This document shows positions 6,172 through 27,237 of a stretch of 27,561 nucleotides of DNA, in pieces. The stretch is from Candidatus Woesearchaeota archaeon (GTDB taxonomy: Archaea; Nanobdellota; Nanobdellia; Nanobdellales; CAZNIQ01), in assembly GCA_964573185.1 (NCBI GenBank), contig CAZNIQ010000007.1, forward strand, positions 1 through 27,561, in the 5' to 3' direction. The notes below the pieces were generated by a model. That model was given only the letters and a program-made list of their open reading frames with translations, searched no databases and was not told where the DNA came from. The translations under genes were made by a program, and so were the position numbers. Each line of letters opens with the position of its first letter. Positions within the stretch are counted from its first letter, which is position 1.

Positions 6172-6426
6172 ATGGAAAGATATTCTGCTAGGGATATAAT
6201 TGGTAAAACTGTTGTATCAAAGAGTGGTAGAAAATTTGGGGAGGTCGCTGATATAATCTTTGAAGTGAGAACTGGAGAGTTATTGCACTTAGTAGTTAGA
6301 AATCCCACACCTTATGCTTTAAGTTTAGATTTGGAAAAAACACCACAAGGAGAAATTTTAGTTCCGTTTACAGCTGTTATAGCAATAGGAGATTTCGTTA
6401 TAATTTCTGAGGAGGATTTAGTCTAA
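6172..6426 (+). CDS. PRC-barrel domain protein (84 aa)
   Basis: ARDIIGKTVVSKSGRKFGEVADIIFEVRTGELLHLVV is a typical PRC-barrel pattern. Confidence 0.6.
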   Translation: MERYSARDIIGKTVVSKSGRKFGEVADIIFEVRTGELLHLVVRNPTPYALSLDLEKTPQGEILVPFTAVIAIGDFVIISEEDLV

Positions 6427-14662: not shown

Positions 14663-15576
14663 GGGTATTTGTACAGTATCCAGAAGGCTTAAAGAACAAA
14701 CTTTGGGAAATAAAAAAGAAGTTAGAAGAACAAGGATATGAAGTCATTTTTGATAATGAACCGACGTATGGATTTTGTGATTTAAAGGATGATGAGGCTT
14801 TAAGATTAGGCTGTCAAGCTATAATACATATAGGGCATAATGCTTTTGGCTTTGAACATTTATTAAAGAAATCTAAAGTTAAAGTAATTATATGGGAATG
14901 GAAATATGATGTTGATAAAGAAAAAGTAGATAGAATACTTAAAAAAGAAATAAATAAGATTAGAGATTATAAGAGAGTCGGAATTGTATCTTCTTTACAA
15001 TATCTAAATTACGTTTATTATTTAAAGGAAAAACTTAAAGAATTGGGGTTTGAACCAATAGTACCAAAGAATCCGCAGATTTTAGGTTGTAATATTGCCA
15101 ATGCTAGAATAATAGAAAATAGAGTAGATATCTTTTTGGTTCCAACAGAAGGAAAATTTTATCCTTTAGGTTTAGCTTTAGAGACTGATAAACCGGTATT
15201 CGCTTTCGATTTAGAAAAAGAACAAATAATTTCAATGGAAAAGGAAAGGAAAAAATATTTAACTGTAAAATATTATTACTTAGAGAAATTTAAAGAAGCT
15301 AAGAAAGTTGCTTTGTTAGTATCATGGAAAAAGGGACAAATGTTTTATGATCCATTTAAAGTTAAAGAAGAATTGGAAAAAATGGGAAAAGAAGTTATTA
15401 TTCTAGCTATGGATGAAGTAGATGAAAGAAAATTAATTGGAATAGATGTGGATTTCTATATCAATTTAGCTTGTCCCAGGATCTTTGATGGGTTTGAAAG
15501 ATTTGAAAAACCAATACTAAATTGGAAAGATATTATTCAGTGGCGCCGCTCCCTTCATCAAAGTTCAGAGGACTGA
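14659..15576 (+). CDS. dph2: diphthamide synthase subunit Dph2 (2-(3-amino-3-carboxypropyl)histidine synthase)
   Basis: VQYPEGLKNKLWEIKKKLEEQGYEVIFDNEPTYGFCDL...IIHIGH, plus conserved Cys in LGCNI and LACPRI. Apparent TTG start overlaps the upstream stop. The last ~13 codons are antisense to a C/D sRNA. Confidence 0.8.
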   Translation: MRVFVQYPEGLKNKLWEIKKKLEEQGYEVIFDNEPTYGFCDLKDDEALRLGCQAIIHIGHNAFGFEHLLKKSKVKVIIWEWKYDVDKEKVDRILKKEINKIRDYKRVGIVSSLQYLNYVYYLKEKLKELGFEPIVPKNPQILGCNIANARIIENRVDIFLVPTEGKFYPLGLALETDKPVFAFDLEKEQIISMEKERKKYLTVKYYYLEKFKEAKKVALLVSWKKGQMFYDPFKVKEELEKMGKEVIILAMDEVDERKLIGIDVDFYINLACPRIFDGFERFEKPILNWKDIIQWRRSLHQSSED

Positions 15577-15587
15577 AAGCTCATCAT
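15537..15587 (-). ncRNA. box C/D sRNA (second unit of the tRNA-Leu array)
   Basis: Minus strand: C AUGAUGA 15587-15581; 12-nt guide gcuuucaguccu; D' CUGA 15568-15565; C' UGAUGA 15560-15555; 14-nt guide agggagcggcgcca; D CUGA 15540-15537. Confidence 0.85.
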
Positions 15588-15638
15588 TCAGTTAAGCCCG
15601 CCTTTCATCAAATTTCAGGGTCCCAGCTGTATCATCAT
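15588..15638 (-). ncRNA. box C/D sRNA (first unit, fused to the tRNA-Leu 3' end)
   Basis: Minus strand: C AUGAUGA 15638-15632, whose first A is the tRNA discriminator; 13-nt guide uacagcugggacc; D' CUGA 15618-15615; C' UGAUGA 15610-15605; 13-nt guide aaggcgggcuuaa; D CUGA 15591-15588. Confidence 0.88.
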
Positions 15639-15721
15639 GGGCCCGCCGGGATTTGAACCCGGGACGGCTCTACGCCATCGGGACCTGAACCCGACCCCTT
15701 TGGCCGCTCGGGCACGGGCCC
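15638..15721 (-). tRNA. tRNA-Leu(CAG): tRNA-Leu (anticodon CAG), class II with long variable arm
   Basis: rc: GGGCCCG UG CCCG AGCGGCCAA AGGG G UCGGG UUCAGGU CCCGA UGGCGUAGAGCCGUC CCGGG UUCAAAU CCCGG CGGGCCC A. Confidence 0.9.
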
Positions 15722-16936: not shown

Positions 16937-16944
16937 TTTTAAAT
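16937..16944 (+). promoter_or_regulatory. TATA-like box TTTTAAAT at -31..-24 of the sRNA starting at G16968
   Basis: Identical motif and spacing to the tRNA-Cys promoter; starts 1 nt beyond the divergent radical-SAM ATG. Confidence 0.55.
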
Positions 16945-16967
16945 AATCTTACGTTAAAAAGTTTTAA

Positions 16968-17018
16968 GTGTAGAGGACGGTGTGTGCTGAATTATGATGA
17001 CGTTACCCGGCGTCCTGA
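16968..17018 (+). ncRNA. box C/D sRNA with degenerate 5' box C
   Basis: GUGUAGA 16968-16974 (alternative register UAGAGGA 16971-16977); guide ggacggugugug 16975-16986; D' CUGA 16987-16990; C' AUGAUGA 16994-17000; 14-nt guide cguuacccggcguc; D CUGA 17015-17018. Confidence 0.65.
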
Positions 17019-17048
17019 ATTTAAATTTTAATTTTAGTGTTCTTCTAA

Positions 17049-17097
17049 ATGATGATGAGTGGGTTTGCTGAAAATGATGAATGGCATGGGACACTGA
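17049..17097 (+). ncRNA. box C/D sRNA lying inside the 5' end of the UDG ORF
   Basis: C AUGAUGA 17049-17055; 12-nt guide ugaguggguuug; D' CUGA 17068-17071; C' AUGAUGA 17074-17080; 13-nt guide auggcaugggaca; D CUGA 17094-17097. Confidence 0.85.
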
Positions 17098-17705
17098 AAG
17101 AATTAGAAAAAGTTCATCAAGAGATCTTAAAATGTCAAAGATGTCCTTTATACAAATACATTACAAACAAAGTCCCCGGAGAAGGAGATCCCACTTCTGG
17201 AATAATGTTTATCGGAGAAGCCCCCGGGAGAGAAGAAGATAAACAAGGTAGACCTTTTGTCGGACCAGCTGGTAAACTATTAACAAAGATGATTGAAGAA
17301 AAATTGGGAATTCAAAGATCAAAAGTTTATATCACAAATGTTTTGAAATGTAGACCCCCAAATAATAGAGATCCTAAACCAGAAGAAATAGAAGCCTGCT
17401 CAATATGGTTAAAGAAACAGTTAGAGATTATAAAACCAAGAGTGGTTGTAACATTGGGTAGATACTCTACAGAATGGATATTCAAATATTTCGGTTTAAA
17501 ATTCACAAAAATTTCAGAAGTTAGAGGAAAAGTATATACTGTTAAAAAATGGGATCATGTAACTTATATAATTCCTACATATCATCCTGCAGCAGTTTTA
17601 TATCATCCGCAATGGAAAGAAGCTTTCGAAAGAGATTTTGAATTGATTAAGAAAGTTATAGAAGGAAAAGAAAAGAAGCCTAAAACATTGGTAGATTTCT
17701 TTTAA
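17049..17705 (+). CDS. udg: family 4 uracil-DNA glycosylase (Fe-S type)
   Basis: CQRCPL...GEGDPTSGIMFIGEAPGREEDKQGRPFVGPAGKLL...VYITNVLKCRPPNNRDP...HPAAVLY. The only in-frame ATGs upstream of the CxxC motif lie in the sRNA C box, so the true start is uncertain. Confidence 0.85.
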   Translation: MMMSGFAENDEWHGTLKELEKVHQEILKCQRCPLYKYITNKVPGEGDPTSGIMFIGEAPGREEDKQGRPFVGPAGKLLTKMIEEKLGIQRSKVYITNVLKCRPPNNRDPKPEEIEACSIWLKKQLEIIKPRVVVTLGRYSTEWIFKYFGLKFTKISEVRGKVYTVKKWDHVTYIIPTYHPAAVLYHPQWKEAFERDFELIKKVIEGKEKKPKTLVDFF

Positions 17706-17778
17706 GCCGCGGCCGGGATTTGAACCCGGGACCTGCGGGTTACGAGCCCGCCGCTCTACCGGGCTGAGCTACCGCGGC
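17705..17778 (-). tRNA. tRNA-Thr(CGU): tRNA-Thr (anticodon CGU), discriminator U
   Basis: rc: GCCGCGG UA GCUC AGCCCGGUA GAGC G GCGGG CUCGUAA CCCGC AGGUC CCGGG UUCAAAU CCCGG CCGCGGC U. The discriminator shares 1 nt with the UDG stop codon on the opposite strand. Confidence 0.9.
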
Positions 17779-19689: not shown

Positions 19690-19739
19690 TCAGACAGGGC
19701 CTCAGCTCATCATATTCAGCGTCGGTGTAGAATCATCAT
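19690..19739 (-). ncRNA. box C/D sRNA filling the gap between two convergent genes
   Basis: Minus strand: C AUGAUGA 19739-19733; 13-nt guide uucuacaccgacg; D' CUGA 19719-19716; C' AUGAUGA 19713-19707; 13-nt guide gcugaggcccugu; D CUGA 19693-19690. Confidence 0.88.
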
Positions 19740-19981: not shown

Positions 19982-20073
19982 GGGCCCGTAGCTCAGCCTG
20001 GTTAGAGCGCCGGCCTTATAAGGCCGGGCTCTAAGACAGCCGGAGGTCCCGGGTTCAAATCCCGGCGGGCCCA
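19982..20073 (+). tRNA. tRNA-Ile(UAU): tRNA-Ile (anticodon UAU) with a 17-nt intron at the canonical 37/38 position
   Basis: GGGCCCG UA GCUC AGCCUGGUUA GAGC G CCGGC CUUAUA[intron]A GCCGG AGGUC CCGGG UUCAAAU CCCGG CGGGCCC A; mature length 75 nt. Confidence 0.85.
20021..20037 (+). other. tRNA intron with bulge-helix-bulge motif
   Basis: Intron AGGCCGGGCUCUAAGAC. C32-U33-U34-A35 pair with intron UAAG (20032-20035). The 3-nt bulges U36-A37-A and A-C-A38 flank this 4-bp helix, with both splice sites between bulge nucleotides 2 and 3. Confidence 0.75.
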
Positions 20074-21417: not shown

Positions 21418-21900
21418 GATCTTTTCCTTAATTTTAAAATATCTTTTAATTAATTCCTCCCAGTTTTTCTTTCCCCTATTTAAAACAGATATAATAGCAA
21501 TACCGTCTTTCTTTATAGCCTCTTTTAATTTGGCTAGTATTTTCTCTGGTTGGGGATCATCCTGCAAAACAGTAATACAAAATATTAAGTCAAATTCTTC
21601 TTTAAAATTCATTTCTTTTAGATCCATTTTTAGAAATTTTACTTTTTTATTCTTTATTCTTTCTTTAGCTTTCCTTAACATATTTTCTGAAATATCTATA
21701 GCTATAATTTCATTACATATGCTCAAAAGATATTCTGTTGAAATCCCAGTACCGCAACCCGCATCCAAACACTTATTAAATCTCTTTTTCAAAAATCTCT
21801 TAATAATCTCAAGTTTTCTTCTCTGCTCCTCTCCGTATAACTCATCATAAATGTTCGCTAAATGATTGTACCACTCCTCAGCCCCTGCTCCAGTCATCAT
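21379..21900 (-). CDS. class I SAM-dependent methyltransferase
   Basis: Motif I LDAGCGTGIST and IAIDISENM. Start placed at ATG 21900 (MMTGAGAEEWYNHLANIYDELYG), which is the C' box of an sRNA. The track start GTG 21912 lies in the sRNA guide. Confidence 0.7.
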   Translation of the reverse strand: MMTGAGAEEWYNHLANIYDELYGEEQRRKLEIIKRFLKKRFNKCLDAGCGTGISTEYLLSICNEIIAIDISENMLRKAKERIKNKKVKFLKMDLKEMNFKEEFDLIFCITVLQDDPQPEKILAKLKEAIKKDGIAIISVLNRGKKNWEELIKRYFKIKEKILEEKDIIFICEP

Positions 21901-21925
21901 AATCAGGAGCACACAAGTTCATCAC
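21878..21925 (-). ncRNA. box C/D sRNA overlapping the methyltransferase start
   Basis: Minus strand: C GUGAUGA 21925-21919; 12-nt guide acuugugugcuc; D' CUGA 21906-21903; C' AUGAUGA 21900-21894; 12-nt guide cuggagcagggg; D CUGA 21881-21878. Confidence 0.85.
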
Positions 21926-21935
21926 TTATAAAAAT
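21926..21935 (+). promoter_or_regulatory. TATA box TTATAAAAAT for the HD-domain gene
   Basis: Centre is about 25 nt upstream of ATG 21955; directly adjacent to box C of the divergent sRNA. Confidence 0.5.
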
Positions 21936-21954
21936 AGTAATCAAAAATATTTTA

Positions 21955-23067
21955 ATGATAATTGCAGATCCGATCTACAACGTTATAGAATTGCCGGATG
22001 AACTTGAAAAACTTATAGATACTCCTGTAGTTCAAAGGTTAAGGAGGATCAAACAATTAGCTTTTGCAAATTTAGTATATCCATCTGCAAATCATACTAG
22101 ATTTGAACATTCTCTAGGAGTTGCTTTTCTTTCTGGAAAAATTGCGGAAAAGGTAAATGAAGATAAATTATTTTATCAGATCTGCGGTTTGTTGCATGAC
22201 GTTGGACATGGACCTTTCTCCCATGCATCAGAAGACGTTTTTCATGTTATTACGAATAAAACTCATGAAGATTTATCCGAATATTGGATAAAACAAATAA
22301 AAGACGTTATTTCTGAACTCGGATATGATTATAAAAAAGTTATAAAGGAAATTAAAGGAAAGGGTTTGGGGATTGTTAATTCTGAACTTGACGCTGATAG
22401 ATTGGATTATTTACAAAGAGATGCGCACCACACAGGAAATTACTTTGGAAAAATCTCTATCTGGTATTTAATAAATAACATTGCGAAAAGAGATGGGAAA
22501 ATTGTTTTTAAAGAAAAAGCAGTGCCAACAATAGAGCAAATATTAATAGCTAGAGGATTAATGTATAATACGGTTTATTTGCATAAAACCACAATATCAG
22601 CAACAGTCTTATTTTATGATGCTTTATTCAACTTAATTGAAAAAGGATATAAAATAGAGGAAATAATGAGGTTAGATGACTATAGATTGATAAAATTATT
22701 TATAGAGGAAGAAATAGAAGAATGGAAGAGAATTGAAAATAGAGATCTTCCAAAACTACTTTTGGAGTTTTATCCTTCCAAGGAATTAACATTCAAGGAA
22801 ATATTAGAAATTAGAGAAGAAATAGAAAGTAAAATTAACGTAAAAATCTATATTTGGCCATTAGAGTTGAAAGAGAAAAGAAAGAAATGGAAAATACATA
22901 TTCTATTAAATGATAATATTGTATCGTTATCTCGAGTTTCTAAAGTCACCCCTTATTTAAGTTTTTTAGAAAAGAGAGTAAAAGCAATAAGAATCTATGT
23001 AGATAAGAAATTTAAAAAAGAAGAAATAAAAGAAAGTATCCTTAAAATTTTAGATAGTTATCAGTAA
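21955..23067 (+). CDS. HD-domain phosphohydrolase (COG1078, dNTPase/SAMHD1-like)
   Basis: RFEHSLGVAFL...GLLHDVGHGPFSH...ELDADRLDYLQRDAHHTG. Start moved to ATG 21955 because the track start 21862 reads antisense through the sRNA. Confidence 0.8.
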   Translation: MIIADPIYNVIELPDELEKLIDTPVVQRLRRIKQLAFANLVYPSANHTRFEHSLGVAFLSGKIAEKVNEDKLFYQICGLLHDVGHGPFSHASEDVFHVITNKTHEDLSEYWIKQIKDVISELGYDYKKVIKEIKGKGLGIVNSELDADRLDYLQRDAHHTGNYFGKISIWYLINNIAKRDGKIVFKEKAVPTIEQILIARGLMYNTVYLHKTTISATVLFYDALFNLIEKGYKIEEIMRLDDYRLIKLFIEEEIEEWKRIENRDLPKLLLEFYPSKELTFKEILEIREEIESKINVKIYIWPLELKEKRKKWKIHILLNDNIVSLSRVSKVTPYLSFLEKRVKAIRIYVDKKFKKEEIKESILKILDSYQ

Positions 23068-23108
23068 CCTACCCTTTCATCACACTCAGACCACACAGCT
23101 ATCATCAT
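23061..23108 (-). ncRNA. box C/D sRNA
   Basis: Minus strand: C AUGAUGA 23108-23102; 12-nt guide uagcuguguggu; D' CUGA 23089-23086; C' UGAUGA 23082-23077; 12-nt guide aaggguagguua; D CUGA 23064-23061 (antisense to the last codons of the HD gene). Confidence 0.88.
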
Positions 23109-23135: not shown

Positions 23136-23549
23136 ATGAAAATCTATTTTAAGGAAATTACCATAGAAACTAATCAAAGAAGAGAGTTAATAAATATCAC
23201 CGAAAAAGTTGAAGAGGTTGTTAAAGAATCTAATATAAAAAATGGTGTTGTCTTGATTTTTGTTCCTCATGCAACAGCAGCATTAATTACTAACGAGGAT
23301 GAACCAAACATTAAGAAAGATTATCTCAATTTATTTGAGAAATTAGTTCCGGAAAATGGAAATTATTATCATAATTTAATAGACAATAATGCAGATGCAC
23401 ATTTACTAAGTGTATTATTGAAGCCTTTCTTGATATTTCCTATTAAAGATAATAGGGTCGTAAGAGGCACTTGGCAAGAGATATTCTTAGTAGAGTTGGA
23501 TGGACCCAGAATAAGAAGAATTATTATAGAAGTTCTGGGTCAGGGGTGA
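23136..23549 (+). CDS. YjbQ/UPF0047 family protein (secondary thiamine-phosphate synthase-like)
   Basis: 137 aa; INITEKVEEVV...GVVLIFVPHATAALITNEDEP...NADAHL...GTWQEIFLVELDGPR is the UPF0047 pattern. Confidence 0.75.
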   Translation: MKIYFKEITIETNQRRELINITEKVEEVVKESNIKNGVVLIFVPHATAALITNEDEPNIKKDYLNLFEKLVPENGNYYHNLIDNNADAHLLSVLLKPFLIFPIKDNRVVRGTWQEIFLVELDGPRIRRIIIEVLGQG

Positions 23550-23587
23550 CCGTGCTCATCATTTTCAGCTCTGTCAACGATCATCAT
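23540..23587 (-). ncRNA. box C/D sRNA
   Basis: Minus strand: C AUGAUGA 23587-23581; 12-nt guide ucguugacagag; D' CUGA 23568-23565; C' AUGAUGA 23562-23556; 12-nt guide gcacggucaccc; D CUGA 23543-23540 (antisense to the last codons of yjbQ-like). Confidence 0.88.
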
Positions 23588-23624
23588 TTTTTTAAACGTT
23601 GTATTACAAGGTATAAATAGATTT

Positions 23625-23696
23625 GGGGCCGTAGTCTAGCGGCATGACGCCGCCCTGACGAGGCGGAGGTCCGGGGTTCGAATCCCCGCGGCCCCA
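23625..23696 (+). tRNA. tRNA-Val(GAC): tRNA-Val (anticodon GAC)
   Basis: GGGGCCG UA GUCU AGCGGCA UGAC G CCGCC CUGACGA GGCGG AGGUC CGGGG UUCGAAU CCCCG CGGCCCC A. Confidence 0.88.
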
Positions 23697-23780
23697 GCCG
23701 CGGTGCCCGAGCGGTCCAAGGGGTCGGTCTGGAGAGCCGATGGCCGTAAGGCCTCCGGGGTTCGAATCCCCGCCGCGGCG
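23697..23780 (+). tRNA. tRNA-Ser(GGA): tRNA-Ser (anticodon GGA), class II, discriminator G
   Basis: GCCGCGG UG CCCG AGCGGUCCA AGGG G UCGGU CUGGAGA GCCGA UGGCCGUAAGGCCUC CGGGG UUCGAAU CCCCG CCGCGGC G. Starts at the base after the tRNA-Val discriminator. Confidence 0.88.
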
Positions 23781-25445
23781 CTAGGATAAAGCATTTTTTA
23801 AGACAAGCTTCAATAAATCTTCAGAATCTATTTTATAATTATATCTTCTCCAATCGTACTCAACTATTTCCTTTTCTTTGATAATTGTTATGTCTAGTTT
23901 TTCTAAGGGAATATATTTTTTTAAAACATTAAATAACAAATTGAAATCACCCTGTATTATTTTTCTTTTTTCTATCTTTACCTTTCCCTTCCATTTTGGA
24001 TTAAAACTTTCAGGAAATTTCTCTTCAACGGAATACATAAATTCTTTTTTAACATATACTTTTCCTATAGGAGTATAAAAATAAACAATTTCTCCCATTT
24101 CTAAACCCTTTTTTAAAGCTTCCCTTACTTCTCTTAAGGTAGCTCCTGTAATTTCCTTAATCCATTCCTCTGGCAGTGGTTCTGTAAGAATATCTAAAAT
24201 CTTTGAAATTCTACTTTTCATCCAAACTTCTTTTAATAAATCAGCAGATATTCCTATGTCAATATATCTTTTTACATGTTCCAAGCCTAACAAAAATAGA
24301 TCGGTATCAATAGTATTTGGGGTAATTATGTAAGTTGCAAATTTCAATGGTTTTGAAGGTCTCATAATTCTTCCGTGTCTTTGAATAAATCTTAAAGGAT
24401 TAGAGGTATGCGACCAAATTATTAGCAAATCTGCTTCAGGTAGATCAACACCTTCCTCACCAGCAGAAGTAGAGATTATTATCTTAGATTTCTTAGCCTC
24501 CTCAAGCTTTTCTCTCATTTTTTCTCTTAACTTACCAACTATTAATGTGACGGAATATTCTTTACTTAGAATTTCATACAGTTTCTTTGCAATAATAACT
24601 CTATCAACAAAAATTATAGCTTTTTCAAAACCTTCATAGACATTCAATATTTTGAAAAGGGTAGGTAATTTATGTAAATCCCTTAATTGGATTATTTTTT
24701 CTTTCAAATCTTCTAATTTTTCAGATAGCTTTGTTCTTTTGGATAAGCTTTCTTTTAGAGCTAAAGCACCATCTGACGAAAAATATTTCAGAGCCAAAGT
24801 ATAAATAAGCTTTTCAGTTCCTTTTGCTTTTTTTCTTCTTTCATCAATTATATCGTATATCTCTTGTTCTTCTTTATTAAAGGGTGCTTCAAAGATATCT
24901 CCAATCCAAGAGGGAACGTATTTTGAAACTAATGGGTGTGTAGCCGGGTATTCCTTTATAATTCCTATTAATTCTTCCAATTCTTTTCTTCTCTTTTTAG
25001 GAATGAAAGCCGTTAAACCCAAAGCATATTCAAAATCTATATTTTTTAATACTTTTACGTAAGCATCTTCTCCAACAGCATGGTGACATTCATCAACTAC
25101 AACAATCTTAAAGTCTTTAGCAAACTCTAAATCATAATAAACTGTTTCAGGAGTTGCTATAACTATTTTTGCTTTCTTCCAAAGTTCTTTTCTTTTCTCT
25201 TTCCTATAAATCCCGTAAATTTTTATAGCATTTAAACCCCAATCTTTATACATCCTTTCAGTTTGTTCAACTAAAATTCTTGTTGGAACAAGAACTAAAG
25301 CCTTATAATCTGGGTGTTTTTTTAGAAGCTCTTTAACAAAATGTATACCAACTATAGTCTTACCTGTTCCTGTGGGTAAAACGATAATGCTTTTCTTTTG
25401 TTTTAAAGCAAAATCGAGAGCTTCTTTTTGATATTCTCTAAGCAT
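23781..25445 (-). CDS. SF2 DEAD/DEAH-box helicase, Hef/FANCM-like helicase module
   Basis: REYQKEAL...VLPTGTGKT (motif I), VVDECHHAVGEDAY (motif II, resembles Hef DEAHRAVGNYAY) and QRHGRIMR (motif VI). 554 aa; no nuclease domain seen. Confidence 0.7.
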   Translation of the reverse strand: MLREYQKEALDFALKQKKSIIVLPTGTGKTIVGIHFVKELLKKHPDYKALVLVPTRILVEQTERMYKDWGLNAIKIYGIYRKEKRKELWKKAKIVIATPETVYYDLEFAKDFKIVVVDECHHAVGEDAYVKVLKNIDFEYALGLTAFIPKKRRKELEELIGIIKEYPATHPLVSKYVPSWIGDIFEAPFNKEEQEIYDIIDERRKKAKGTEKLIYTLALKYFSSDGALALKESLSKRTKLSEKLEDLKEKIIQLRDLHKLPTLFKILNVYEGFEKAIIFVDRVIIAKKLYEILSKEYSVTLIVGKLREKMREKLEEAKKSKIIISTSAGEEGVDLPEADLLIIWSHTSNPLRFIQRHGRIMRPSKPLKFATYIITPNTIDTDLFLLGLEHVKRYIDIGISADLLKEVWMKSRISKILDILTEPLPEEWIKEITGATLREVREALKKGLEMGEIVYFYTPIGKVYVKKEFMYSVEEKFPESFNPKWKGKVKIEKRKIIQGDFNLLFNVLKKYIPLEKLDITIIKEKEIVEYDWRRYNYKIDSEDLLKLVLKNALS

Positions 25446-26378: not shown

Positions 26379-27101
26379 ATGAAAGTACTACAGATACTCA
26401 AAGAAAGATATCCTGATACTTATGAAAAGATAATTAAAGGAGAAGTAGACAAGATAAAGCCAAAAGACGAGATTGAAAAGATGCTTCTTGAAATTTTCTT
26501 TTCTAATGATAGGAGGAGTTCAAAATACATTGATGAATTTTTTAGATTAAAATGTGCAAAAGATATAGTTGAAATTTTAGGTAAGAATCTTTCAGCAAAA
26601 GAAATTACTGAAGCAATGAGTATTAGAGACAGATTAAGGAAATTAGATATAAAGGATGCTATTGTTTTTGATTTTTGTGCAGGAAAAGCAATATTTTCTT
26701 TATTAGTAGCATTTACTTTACCAGTTAGAAAAGTTATCGCAATAGATATCAAAAAACCGAATATAGATTTTTCAGGAGTAAGAAAATTTGAGTACTATGA
26801 GGTTAATTTATTTGATAAAGAAGTTGAGGAGATTATAGAAAAAGAAGAAGGTAGGAAAATTTTTGTTGGAATCCATTGTTGTAAAAATTTATCTATAAGA
26901 GTAATAGAGTTATTCAATAAATATGGAGATTATTTATTTTTAATGCCTTGTTGTGTTTTAAGAACTTTTAAGAACGATTTCTGGGGATATATAGATTGGG
27001 TAAAGTTCCTAGTATCAAAAGTTAAAAAGGGGAAGGTTAAAGTAGAATGGGATTGGGATGTGTGGTCCGAAAGAAATGCTATAATTCAGGTGATGACCTG
27101 A
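26379..27101 (+). CDS. putative Rossmann-fold methyltransferase-like protein (weak)
   Basis: VFDFCAGKAIFSLL...VIAIDIK resembles MTase motifs I/II; paired Cys motifs HCCKN and MPCC. The last codons GTG ATG ACC form box C of the following sRNA. Confidence 0.4.
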   Translation: MKVLQILKERYPDTYEKIIKGEVDKIKPKDEIEKMLLEIFFSNDRRSSKYIDEFFRLKCAKDIVEILGKNLSAKEITEAMSIRDRLRKLDIKDAIVFDFCAGKAIFSLLVAFTLPVRKVIAIDIKKPNIDFSGVRKFEYYEVNLFDKEVEEIIEKEEGRKIFVGIHCCKNLSIRVIELFNKYGDYLFLMPCCVLRTFKNDFWGYIDWVKFLVSKVKKGKVKVEWDWDVWSERNAIIQVMT

Positions 27102-27139
27102 TAGGCAAACAGAGAAATGAAGAACCTACCCGTAACTGA
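27090..27139 (+). ncRNA. box C/D sRNA (unit 1 of 3)
   Basis: C GUGAUGA 27090-27096; 13-nt guide ccugauaggcaaa; D' CAGA 27110-27113; C' AUGAAGA 27117-27123; 12-nt guide accuacccguaa; D CUGA 27136-27139. Confidence 0.75.
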
Positions 27140-27187
27140 TGATGAGCCTGTTACCATCAGATTTATGAAGACACCGCGAGGTGCTGA
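27139..27187 (+). ncRNA. box C/D sRNA (unit 2 of 3)
   Basis: C AUGAUGA 27139-27145 (first A shared with the preceding box D); 12-nt guide gccuguuaccau; D' CAGA 27158-27161; C' AUGAAGA 27165-27171; 12-nt guide caccgcgaggug; D CUGA 27184-27187. Confidence 0.8.
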
Positions 27188-27237
27188 ATGATGAATTTTC
27201 CTGCTACTGAAAATTGATGAAAGGTCCCATTCACTGA
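27188..27237 (+). ncRNA. box C/D sRNA (unit 3 of 3)
   Basis: C AUGAUGA 27188-27194; 12-nt guide auuuuccugcua; D' CUGA 27207-27210; C' UGAUGA 27215-27220; 13-nt guide aaggucccauuca; D CUGA 27234-27237. Confidence 0.88.

Follow-up and report, generated by a model that had tools for sequence, protein, structure and literature searches.

A uracil-DNA glycosylase (UDG) gene whose first 16 codons coincide with a complete box C/D sRNA raises two questions: whether the sRNA is a genuine guide gene, and how a guide RNA and an mRNA could be drawn from the same nucleotides. We addressed them in a window of 27,561 nucleotides (nt), by which we mean the whole stretch of DNA that was analysed. The window has a GC content of 31.6% and carries eight G+C-rich tRNAs together with housekeeping genes for RpoF, L21e, S8, L18, S3Ae, RadA, TBP, IleRS, Dph2, and a Trp/Tyr-type tRNA synthetase. 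Its UDG has its best named relatives in Nanoclepta and Nanopusillaceae. Based on this gene content and these relatives, the window is a chromosomal piece of an uncultured nanoarchaeon. Compact C/D sRNAs are known to be plentiful in nanoarchaea (PMC3491384). The sequence of the sRNA/UDG junction was identical in two independent assemblies, indicating that the junction is neither chimeric nor an assembly artefact.

The sRNA was defined by reading the sequence and by a regular-expression scan. Positions 17049–17097 of the plus strand consist of ATGATGA, 12 nt, CTGA, AAA, TGATGA, 13 nt, and CTGA. Box C (ATGATGA; AUGAUGA in RNA, 17049–17055) is followed by the 12-nt D′ guide TGAGTGGGTTTG (RNA UGAGUGGGUUUG, 17056–17067), which contains the core GGGUUUG, and by box D′ (CTGA; CUGA, 17068–17071). 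Behind the 3-nt AAA linker lie box C′ (TGATGA; UGAUGA, 17075–17080), the 13-nt D guide ATGGCATGGGACA (RNA AUGGCAUGGGACA, 17081–17093), which ends in ACA, and box D (CTGA; CUGA, 17094–17097), which is read as codon L16 (CTG) and the first base of K17 of the UDG. With all four boxes perfect and a spacing of 12/3/13, the complete C/D sRNA with 12- and 13-nt guides that the earlier note had described was confirmed. By box criteria, namely C, D′, C′, D, a short linker, and guides of ~12 nt, it is a textbook archaeal box C/D sRNA.

The strict C/D pattern occurred nine times in the 27.5-kb window and in none of 300 dinucleotide-preserving shuffles. Two further sRNAs were found if one mismatch was tolerated in D′ and C′, bringing the total to 11. 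The guide spacers of the other window sRNAs were 12–14 nt long. Folding gave a z of about −0.9, which is indistinguishable from shuffled sequences, and neither a terminal stem nor a special fold was seen; C/D sRNAs usually have no secondary structure above chance.

The overlapping ORF (17049–17705, plus strand) encodes 218 amino acids and matched PF03167 with E = 1.5e-39, the core of the domain beginning at about residue 16; against PDB entry 4zbx the match had E = 4.7e-70. In an alignment of 31 sequences, comprising the window protein and 30 homologues, C29, C32, C101, C117, G56-E-A-P-G60, and H179-P-A181 were invariant. The AlphaFold model had a mean pLDDT of 93 and a value of about 61 for residues 1–10. 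Judged from these comparisons, the ORF is an intact family-4 (thermostable, 4Fe-4S) UDG.

All 49 nt of the sRNA lie inside the UDG ORF on the coding strand, where they form codons 1–16 with the start codon in box C; both guides are therefore under coding constraint. The ORF cannot extend further upstream because an in-frame TAA stop (17046–17048, plus strand) directly precedes the first ATG. The run AUGAUGAUGA (17049–17058, plus strand), which begins with box C, carries three in-frame start codons. Ahead of the C29/C32 (CxxC) motif, the three ATGs of ATGATGATGA are the only in-frame starts, with no GTG or TTG among them, and the next Met is residue 53. The 30 homologues, including the closest ones, begin at query residues 14–18, and residue 3 of the solved family-4 UDGs aligns to query residue 18–19. 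Hence, two further claims held, namely that box C provides the only AUGs before the Cys motif and that the residues encoded by the sRNA, MMMSGFAENDEWHGT, form an N-terminal extension, which is 15 residues long.

We translated all 11 window sRNAs in the frame of box C. Only the sRNA at 17049–17097 remained open through box D. The three sRNAs with the canonical 12/3/12 layout ran into the TGA of box D in frame, and that at 23540–23587, for example, gives MMIVDRAENDEHGHP followed by a stop. In the sRNA on the UDG gene, the 13-nt D spacer places the UGA of box D out of frame and thereby keeps the UDG reading open. The fusion therefore needed, or selected, a D spacer one base above the canonical length.

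A TATA/box A-like promoter element, TTTAAATT (17020–17027, plus strand), precedes the sRNA and the ORF, with its TTTAAA (17020–17025) at −29 from A17049. TATA-like hexamers located before the tRNAs, the sRNAs with their own promoters, and the ATGs of first genes in the window had a mode of −30 to −28. The AT-rich box that had been noted about 25 nt upstream is thus a TTTAAA at the modal promoter distance of the window. In N. equitans, the box A TTTAAA is located ~26–27 nt before the transcription start (PMC3491384). Shine-Dalgarno-like leaders were not seen before the window genes. Given the TTTAAA at the window-modal spacing, the UDG/sRNA transcript is most probably leaderless, its first nucleotide being the first A of box C or one no more than 2 nt away from it.

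A single TATA-like box stood at −29, and neither an internal promoter nor a terminator was recognised in the sequence. Between 17049 and 17800, no T5 run that could serve as a terminator was present. A separate short sRNA transcript is therefore unlikely, and the sRNA would need to be trimmed from the mRNA. The UDG stop codon (17703–17705) shares one base with the 3′ end of the convergent tRNA-Thr (17705–17778, minus strand), which leaves no room for a terminator of UDG's own. Support is best for the proposal that a single promoter serves both products, a leaderless UDG mRNA and, alternatively, an sRNA, since the TATA spacing is that of other leaderless genes and tRNAs and no T5 run is present.

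To place the fusion in time, the four loci with the closest orthologues of the UDG (L003–L006; 68–78% identity) were compared with the window in a codon alignment. At these four loci, no sRNA was found at or before the UDG start codon, and the neighbours of UDG differ from those in the window. The ATG of the orthologues aligns with ACA (17091–17093) at the end of the D guide of the window. Box D spans codons 2–3 of the orthologues, with its CTG standing opposite their codon 2 (TTA or CTA). As the sRNA is absent from all four loci, the sRNA-UDG fusion is, by this comparison, recent and confined to this lineage. Because the ancestral ATG is now ACA, translation of UDG depends on the AUGs of box C.

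The loss of the ancestral ATG could also mean that UDG lost its native start to the sRNA insertion and fell silent, leaving a young pseudogene that is still open; indeed, 5′ overlap may yield pseudogenes downstream of sRNA genes (PMC7994747). This is very unlikely here, however, as the ORF is full length, retains every invariant residue, and has a confident predicted fold. Moreover, its frame is open across all four boxes, compared with none of the 10 other sRNAs, and the gene has a promoter of the leaderless type.

The presence of the start codons inside box C could also point to an evolved translational switch, in which an sRNP or L7Ae on the 5′-terminal k-turn would set UDG dosage, for example via the supply of L7Ae, Nop5, and fibrillarin or via temperature. 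L7Ae has been reported to repress translation via k-turns in 5′ UTRs and just after the start codon (Daume 2017, PMC5539422), and the 13-nt spacer, by holding the frame open, suggests selection for both products. We nevertheless consider a switch unlikely, because the arrangement is missing from all four closest orthologue loci and is therefore not conserved. In addition, in the part of PMC7994747 that summarises reporter work and Tripp 2017, a 5′ overlap does no more than lower the expression of the gene downstream, and natural cases are rare, such overlaps being given for 7% of sRNA genes. The earlier note had itself held that orthologues lacking the box pattern would speak against its proposal. 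The pattern is lacking in the four closest loci and the arrangement is not a conserved regulatory device; the sRNA itself is unaffected by this result.

A related possibility is that selection kept the fusion as an either/or transcript, yielding a tRNA-Trp guide RNP or a UDG mRNA. The pool of L7Ae, Nop5, and fibrillarin would then set the UDG level, and the 13-nt spacer and the triple AUG would be adaptations to dual use. We judge this to be improbable. The overlap is instead regarded as a tolerated by-product of the mobility of sRNA genes and not as an evolved switch.

The question of whether the sRNA is a genuine guide gene was approached through its family. Its best Rfam match was sR3 (RF01133) with 32.3 bits (E = 1.2e-6 locally and 9.5e-5 window-wide), which is below the sR3 gathering threshold of 41 bits. 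Other C/D families scored mostly 10–17 bits on the same sRNA, owing to the boxes alone, and sR20 scored 28.1 bits. We then scanned a genome collection, with one genome per species, for the pattern TGATGA-N5-7-GGGTYTGCTGA-N2-6-TGATGA. The scan returned 90 loci, nearly all of them (Archaeoglobi, Methanomicrobiales) C/D RNAs within tRNA-Trp introns. The core GGGTYTG stood next to box D′ in 88 of the returned loci, and the window has GGGTTTG-CTGA. The tRNA-Trp genes at the scan loci are laid out as exon 1, ending in GGGCUCCAG, the intron, and exon 2, beginning with ACCCGU. The intron copies matched Rfam sR3 with 65–66 bits, nested in the tRNA match.

Stand-alone copies were found at two of the scan loci. 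One (L007, 3442–3502, minus strand; 43.1 bits) comes from an Anstonellales DPANN MAG and the other (L036, 6221–6280, minus strand; 29.3 bits) from a 36%-GC MAG labelled Desulfurococcaceae; both are located directly upstream of a same-strand ORF. The L036 sequence may be a mis-binned nanoarchaeal contig, and another C/D match was seen on it at 6331–6383. From its sequence, the sRNA at 17049–17097 appears to be a divergent stand-alone relative of sR3, that is, a relocated tRNA-Trp guide.

According to the N+5 rule, the D guide of the sR3 family (..UUGGAGC.) addresses C34 and the D′ guide (..GGGUCUG) addresses position 39. The tRNA-Trp intron guides Cm34 and Um39 (PMC7994747), and the trans-acting guide for C34 of tRNA-Trp in Pyrobaculum is sR26. 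In the window sRNA, the complement of the D′ guide, CAAACCCAC, fits positions 35–43 of a generic archaeal tRNA-Trp (CA[A/G]ACCC..; C35-A36-R37-A38-C39-C40-C41) with position 39 at N+5. Based on this homology, position 39 of tRNA-Trp is the predicted target of the D′ guide. The core of the D guide is UGGGAC (..UGGGACA) compared with UGGAGC in the family (..UGGAGCA, the complement of the anticodon-loop GCUCCA), and for C34 to be placed at N+5, the tRNA would need U32, position 33 would have to form a G.U pair, and position 37 would be mismatched.

Target sites were sought in the eight tRNAs of the window, in the whole window, in the 16S and 23S rRNAs of E. coli, and in an archaeal 23S rRNA (L083), and nothing convincing was found but the generic CAGACCC of anticodon arms. 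A two-guide pattern scan of metagenome contigs for the cognate pre-tRNA-Trp gave 27 chance matches in high-GC bacterial DNA and no tRNA, and two scans of viral contigs for the cognate tRNA-Trp gave nothing relevant. With ARAGORN in intron mode, neither the window nor the nanoarchaeal loci yielded a tRNA-Trp. A pairing of the D guide with a site matching N. equitans 23S-2086 (CUGUCC..) was rejected because only 6 nt match and N+5 is off by one. None of the 26 published N. equitans sRNAs shares these guides (PMC3491384). In Pyrobaculum, 88% of the guides overlapped by the 5′ end of an ORF are without a target (PMC6009581); thus, one or both guides of the window sRNA may be orphan.

The score below the sR3 threshold, the divergence of the D guide from the family core, and the fact that overlapped guides are usually orphan (PMC6009581) would all be expected of a relic, a C/D sequence that is no longer processed and survives only as a 5′ coding extension donating the start codon. 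We consider such a relic to be rather unlikely. The four boxes are perfect with canonical spacing, although the residues that they encode are unconserved in any homologue, so that coding selection would not keep the boxes. The core of the D′ guide is, moreover, conserved with distant members of the family.

A second C/D sRNA-like element was found 30 nt upstream of the UDG sRNA (16968–17018, plus strand). It consists of GUGUAGA, 12 nt, CUGA, AUUA, UGAUGA, 14 nt, and CUGA; its D′, C′, and D boxes are perfect, and its box C, GUGUAGA, is non-canonical in having UA in place of the central AU. A TTTAAA of its own lies at 16938–16943 (−30). The complement of its D guide, GACGCCGGGUAACG, resembles the target of N. 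equitans sRNA22 at 16S-945, GACGCmCGGGAAC (PMC3491384), and that of its D′ guide, CACACACCGUCC, resembles the 1400 region of 16S rRNA. The spacer between the two sRNAs (17019–17048) is T-rich and bears the TATA box of UDG. An upstream sRNA was also sought in the four orthologue loci, and none was found. The second promoter and the sRNA-like element (16938–17018) could give a longer, leadered transcript of the locus.

On the minus strand at 15537–15721, tRNA-Leu (15638–15721) is followed without a spacer by tandem C/D sRNAs at 15588–15638 and 15537–15587. This array looks polycistronic, like tRNA-Val/sRNA8 of N. equitans, and its last sRNA (15537–15587) lies antisense over the 3′ end of the Dph2 ORF, which ends at 15576. 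Three C/D sRNAs stand head to tail on the plus strand at 27090–27237. The D box of the first shares one base with box C of the next (CTGATGATGA), and the D box of the second abuts box C of the third; the first two sRNAs have CAGA/TGAAGA internal boxes. The array begins within the last codons of the ORF at 26379–27101. The sRNAs at 23061–23108 and 23540–23587 lie antisense over ORF 3′ ends, and the Trp/Tyr-type tRNA synthetase ORF, on the opposite strand, has its 3′ end directly next to the sRNA at 19690–19739. The sRNA at 21878–21925 (minus strand) lies antisense over codons 6–21 of a mechanically called HD-domain ORF (21862–23067, plus strand). [quoted passage not shown]

Two tRNA arrangements were also observed. 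On the plus strand at 23624–23781, tRNA-Val abuts tRNA-Ser without a spacer, and the ARAGORN coordinates of the two share 3 nt; with cleavage at the 3′ side of tRNA-Val, the 5′ end of tRNA-Ser would be formed. This junction would matter if the organism is without RNase P, like N. equitans. An intron-containing tRNA at 19982–20073 (plus strand) was left unnamed by ARAGORN and was read by hand as a tRNA-Ile whose anticodon is UAU and whose 17-nt intron sits at the canonical position 37/38. In N. equitans and Korarchaeum, a UAU isoleucine tRNA takes the place of the agmatidine system.

Taken together, we favour, with a probability of roughly 0.6, the reading that a genuine sR3-related guide sRNA gene lies on the 5′ end of UDG, and that the two share a leaderless transcript with two fates and a UDG start in box C. 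In this lineage, a divergent stand-alone relative of sR3 would have become positioned precisely on the 5′ end of UDG; in this fusion, the ancestral ATG would have given way to the present ACA, and the UDG start would have moved to the AUGs of box C. The single promoter (TTTAAA at −29) would then produce a leaderless RNA starting at or next to A17049. In the first fate, L7Ae, Nop5, and fibrillarin would assemble on the C/D and C′/D′ k-turns and shield the first ~50 nt, and the unshielded body of the mRNA would decay, leaving the sRNA behind. As far as PMC7994747 and PMC6009581 deal with maturation, it requires intact k-turns only, whatever the transcribed context. In the second fate, the ribosome would reach the 5′-terminal AUG first, giving UDG with a poorly ordered, 15-residue N-terminal extension. 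As box C is the start site, RNP assembly would hide the start codons and UDG output should fall; for other sRNA genes, a lowering of downstream gene expression by 5′ overlap is attributed to Tripp 2017 in the summary given in PMC7994747. With the start codon identical to box C, the sRNA and mRNA fates would be mutually exclusive for each molecule.

The elements of this reading have been described in other archaea. Lui et al. 2018 (PMC6009581) reported sense overlap of sRNAs with the 5′ ends of ORFs, co-transcription, and possible interference with initiation via L7Ae, Nop56/58, and fibrillarin. The window sRNA resembles their category 1, for which an overlap of 5 nt or more is required, and the overlaps of Tripp 2017 in its coding-strand orientation, its position at the 5′ end of the ORF, here with all 49 nt inside, and the start codon that it contains. 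In the Pyrobaculum overlaps, however, the start codon is located in box C′ or the D guide (PMC6009581), and in the overlaps of a six-species survey, as far as PMC7994747 describes them, it is mostly found either within a guide or 3′ of box D; here, it is located in box C and the whole sRNA is coding.

Compared with sR3 (RF01133; pre-tRNA-Trp intron, Cm34/Nm39), the window sRNA shares the box architecture, the D′ core GGGUYUG by box D′, and the UGG..CA portion of the D guide, but it is located outside a tRNA intron, its score is below the threshold, and its D guide core is altered. The stand-alone relatives at L007 and L036 are upstream of a same-strand ORF, whereas the window sRNA is inside one. 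The locus has in common with the L7Ae control of Daume 2017 (PMC5539422) a sequence with the potential to form a k-turn at the translation start; the k-turns in that study are in 5′ UTRs or mRNA bodies, whereas here a complete guide sRNA is present. As in N. equitans (Randau 2012, PMC3491384), the sRNA is a compact RNA of ~50 nt without a terminal stem, and the two genomes further have in common that promoters carry TTTAAA, that tRNAs and sRNAs occur as dicistrons, and that sRNAs often overlap mRNAs.

The shared promoter, the sense 5′ overlap, and the possible occlusion of initiation by L7Ae are thus already published (Tripp 2017, Lui 2018, Daume 2017). The locus is a clean, extreme example of the described archaeal sRNA/ORF sense 5′ overlap and not a new mechanism; it differs in degree. 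It offers a natural setting of unusual clarity in which to test two published proposals, namely that archaeal C/D sRNAs are carved from mRNAs solely by RNP protection and that sRNP or L7Ae assembly at the 5′ end of an mRNA competes with leaderless initiation. For the sR3 family, the locus would show a tRNA-Trp guide, which is intronic in many Euryarchaeota, as a free gene that landed on a protein gene in a DPANN-type genome.
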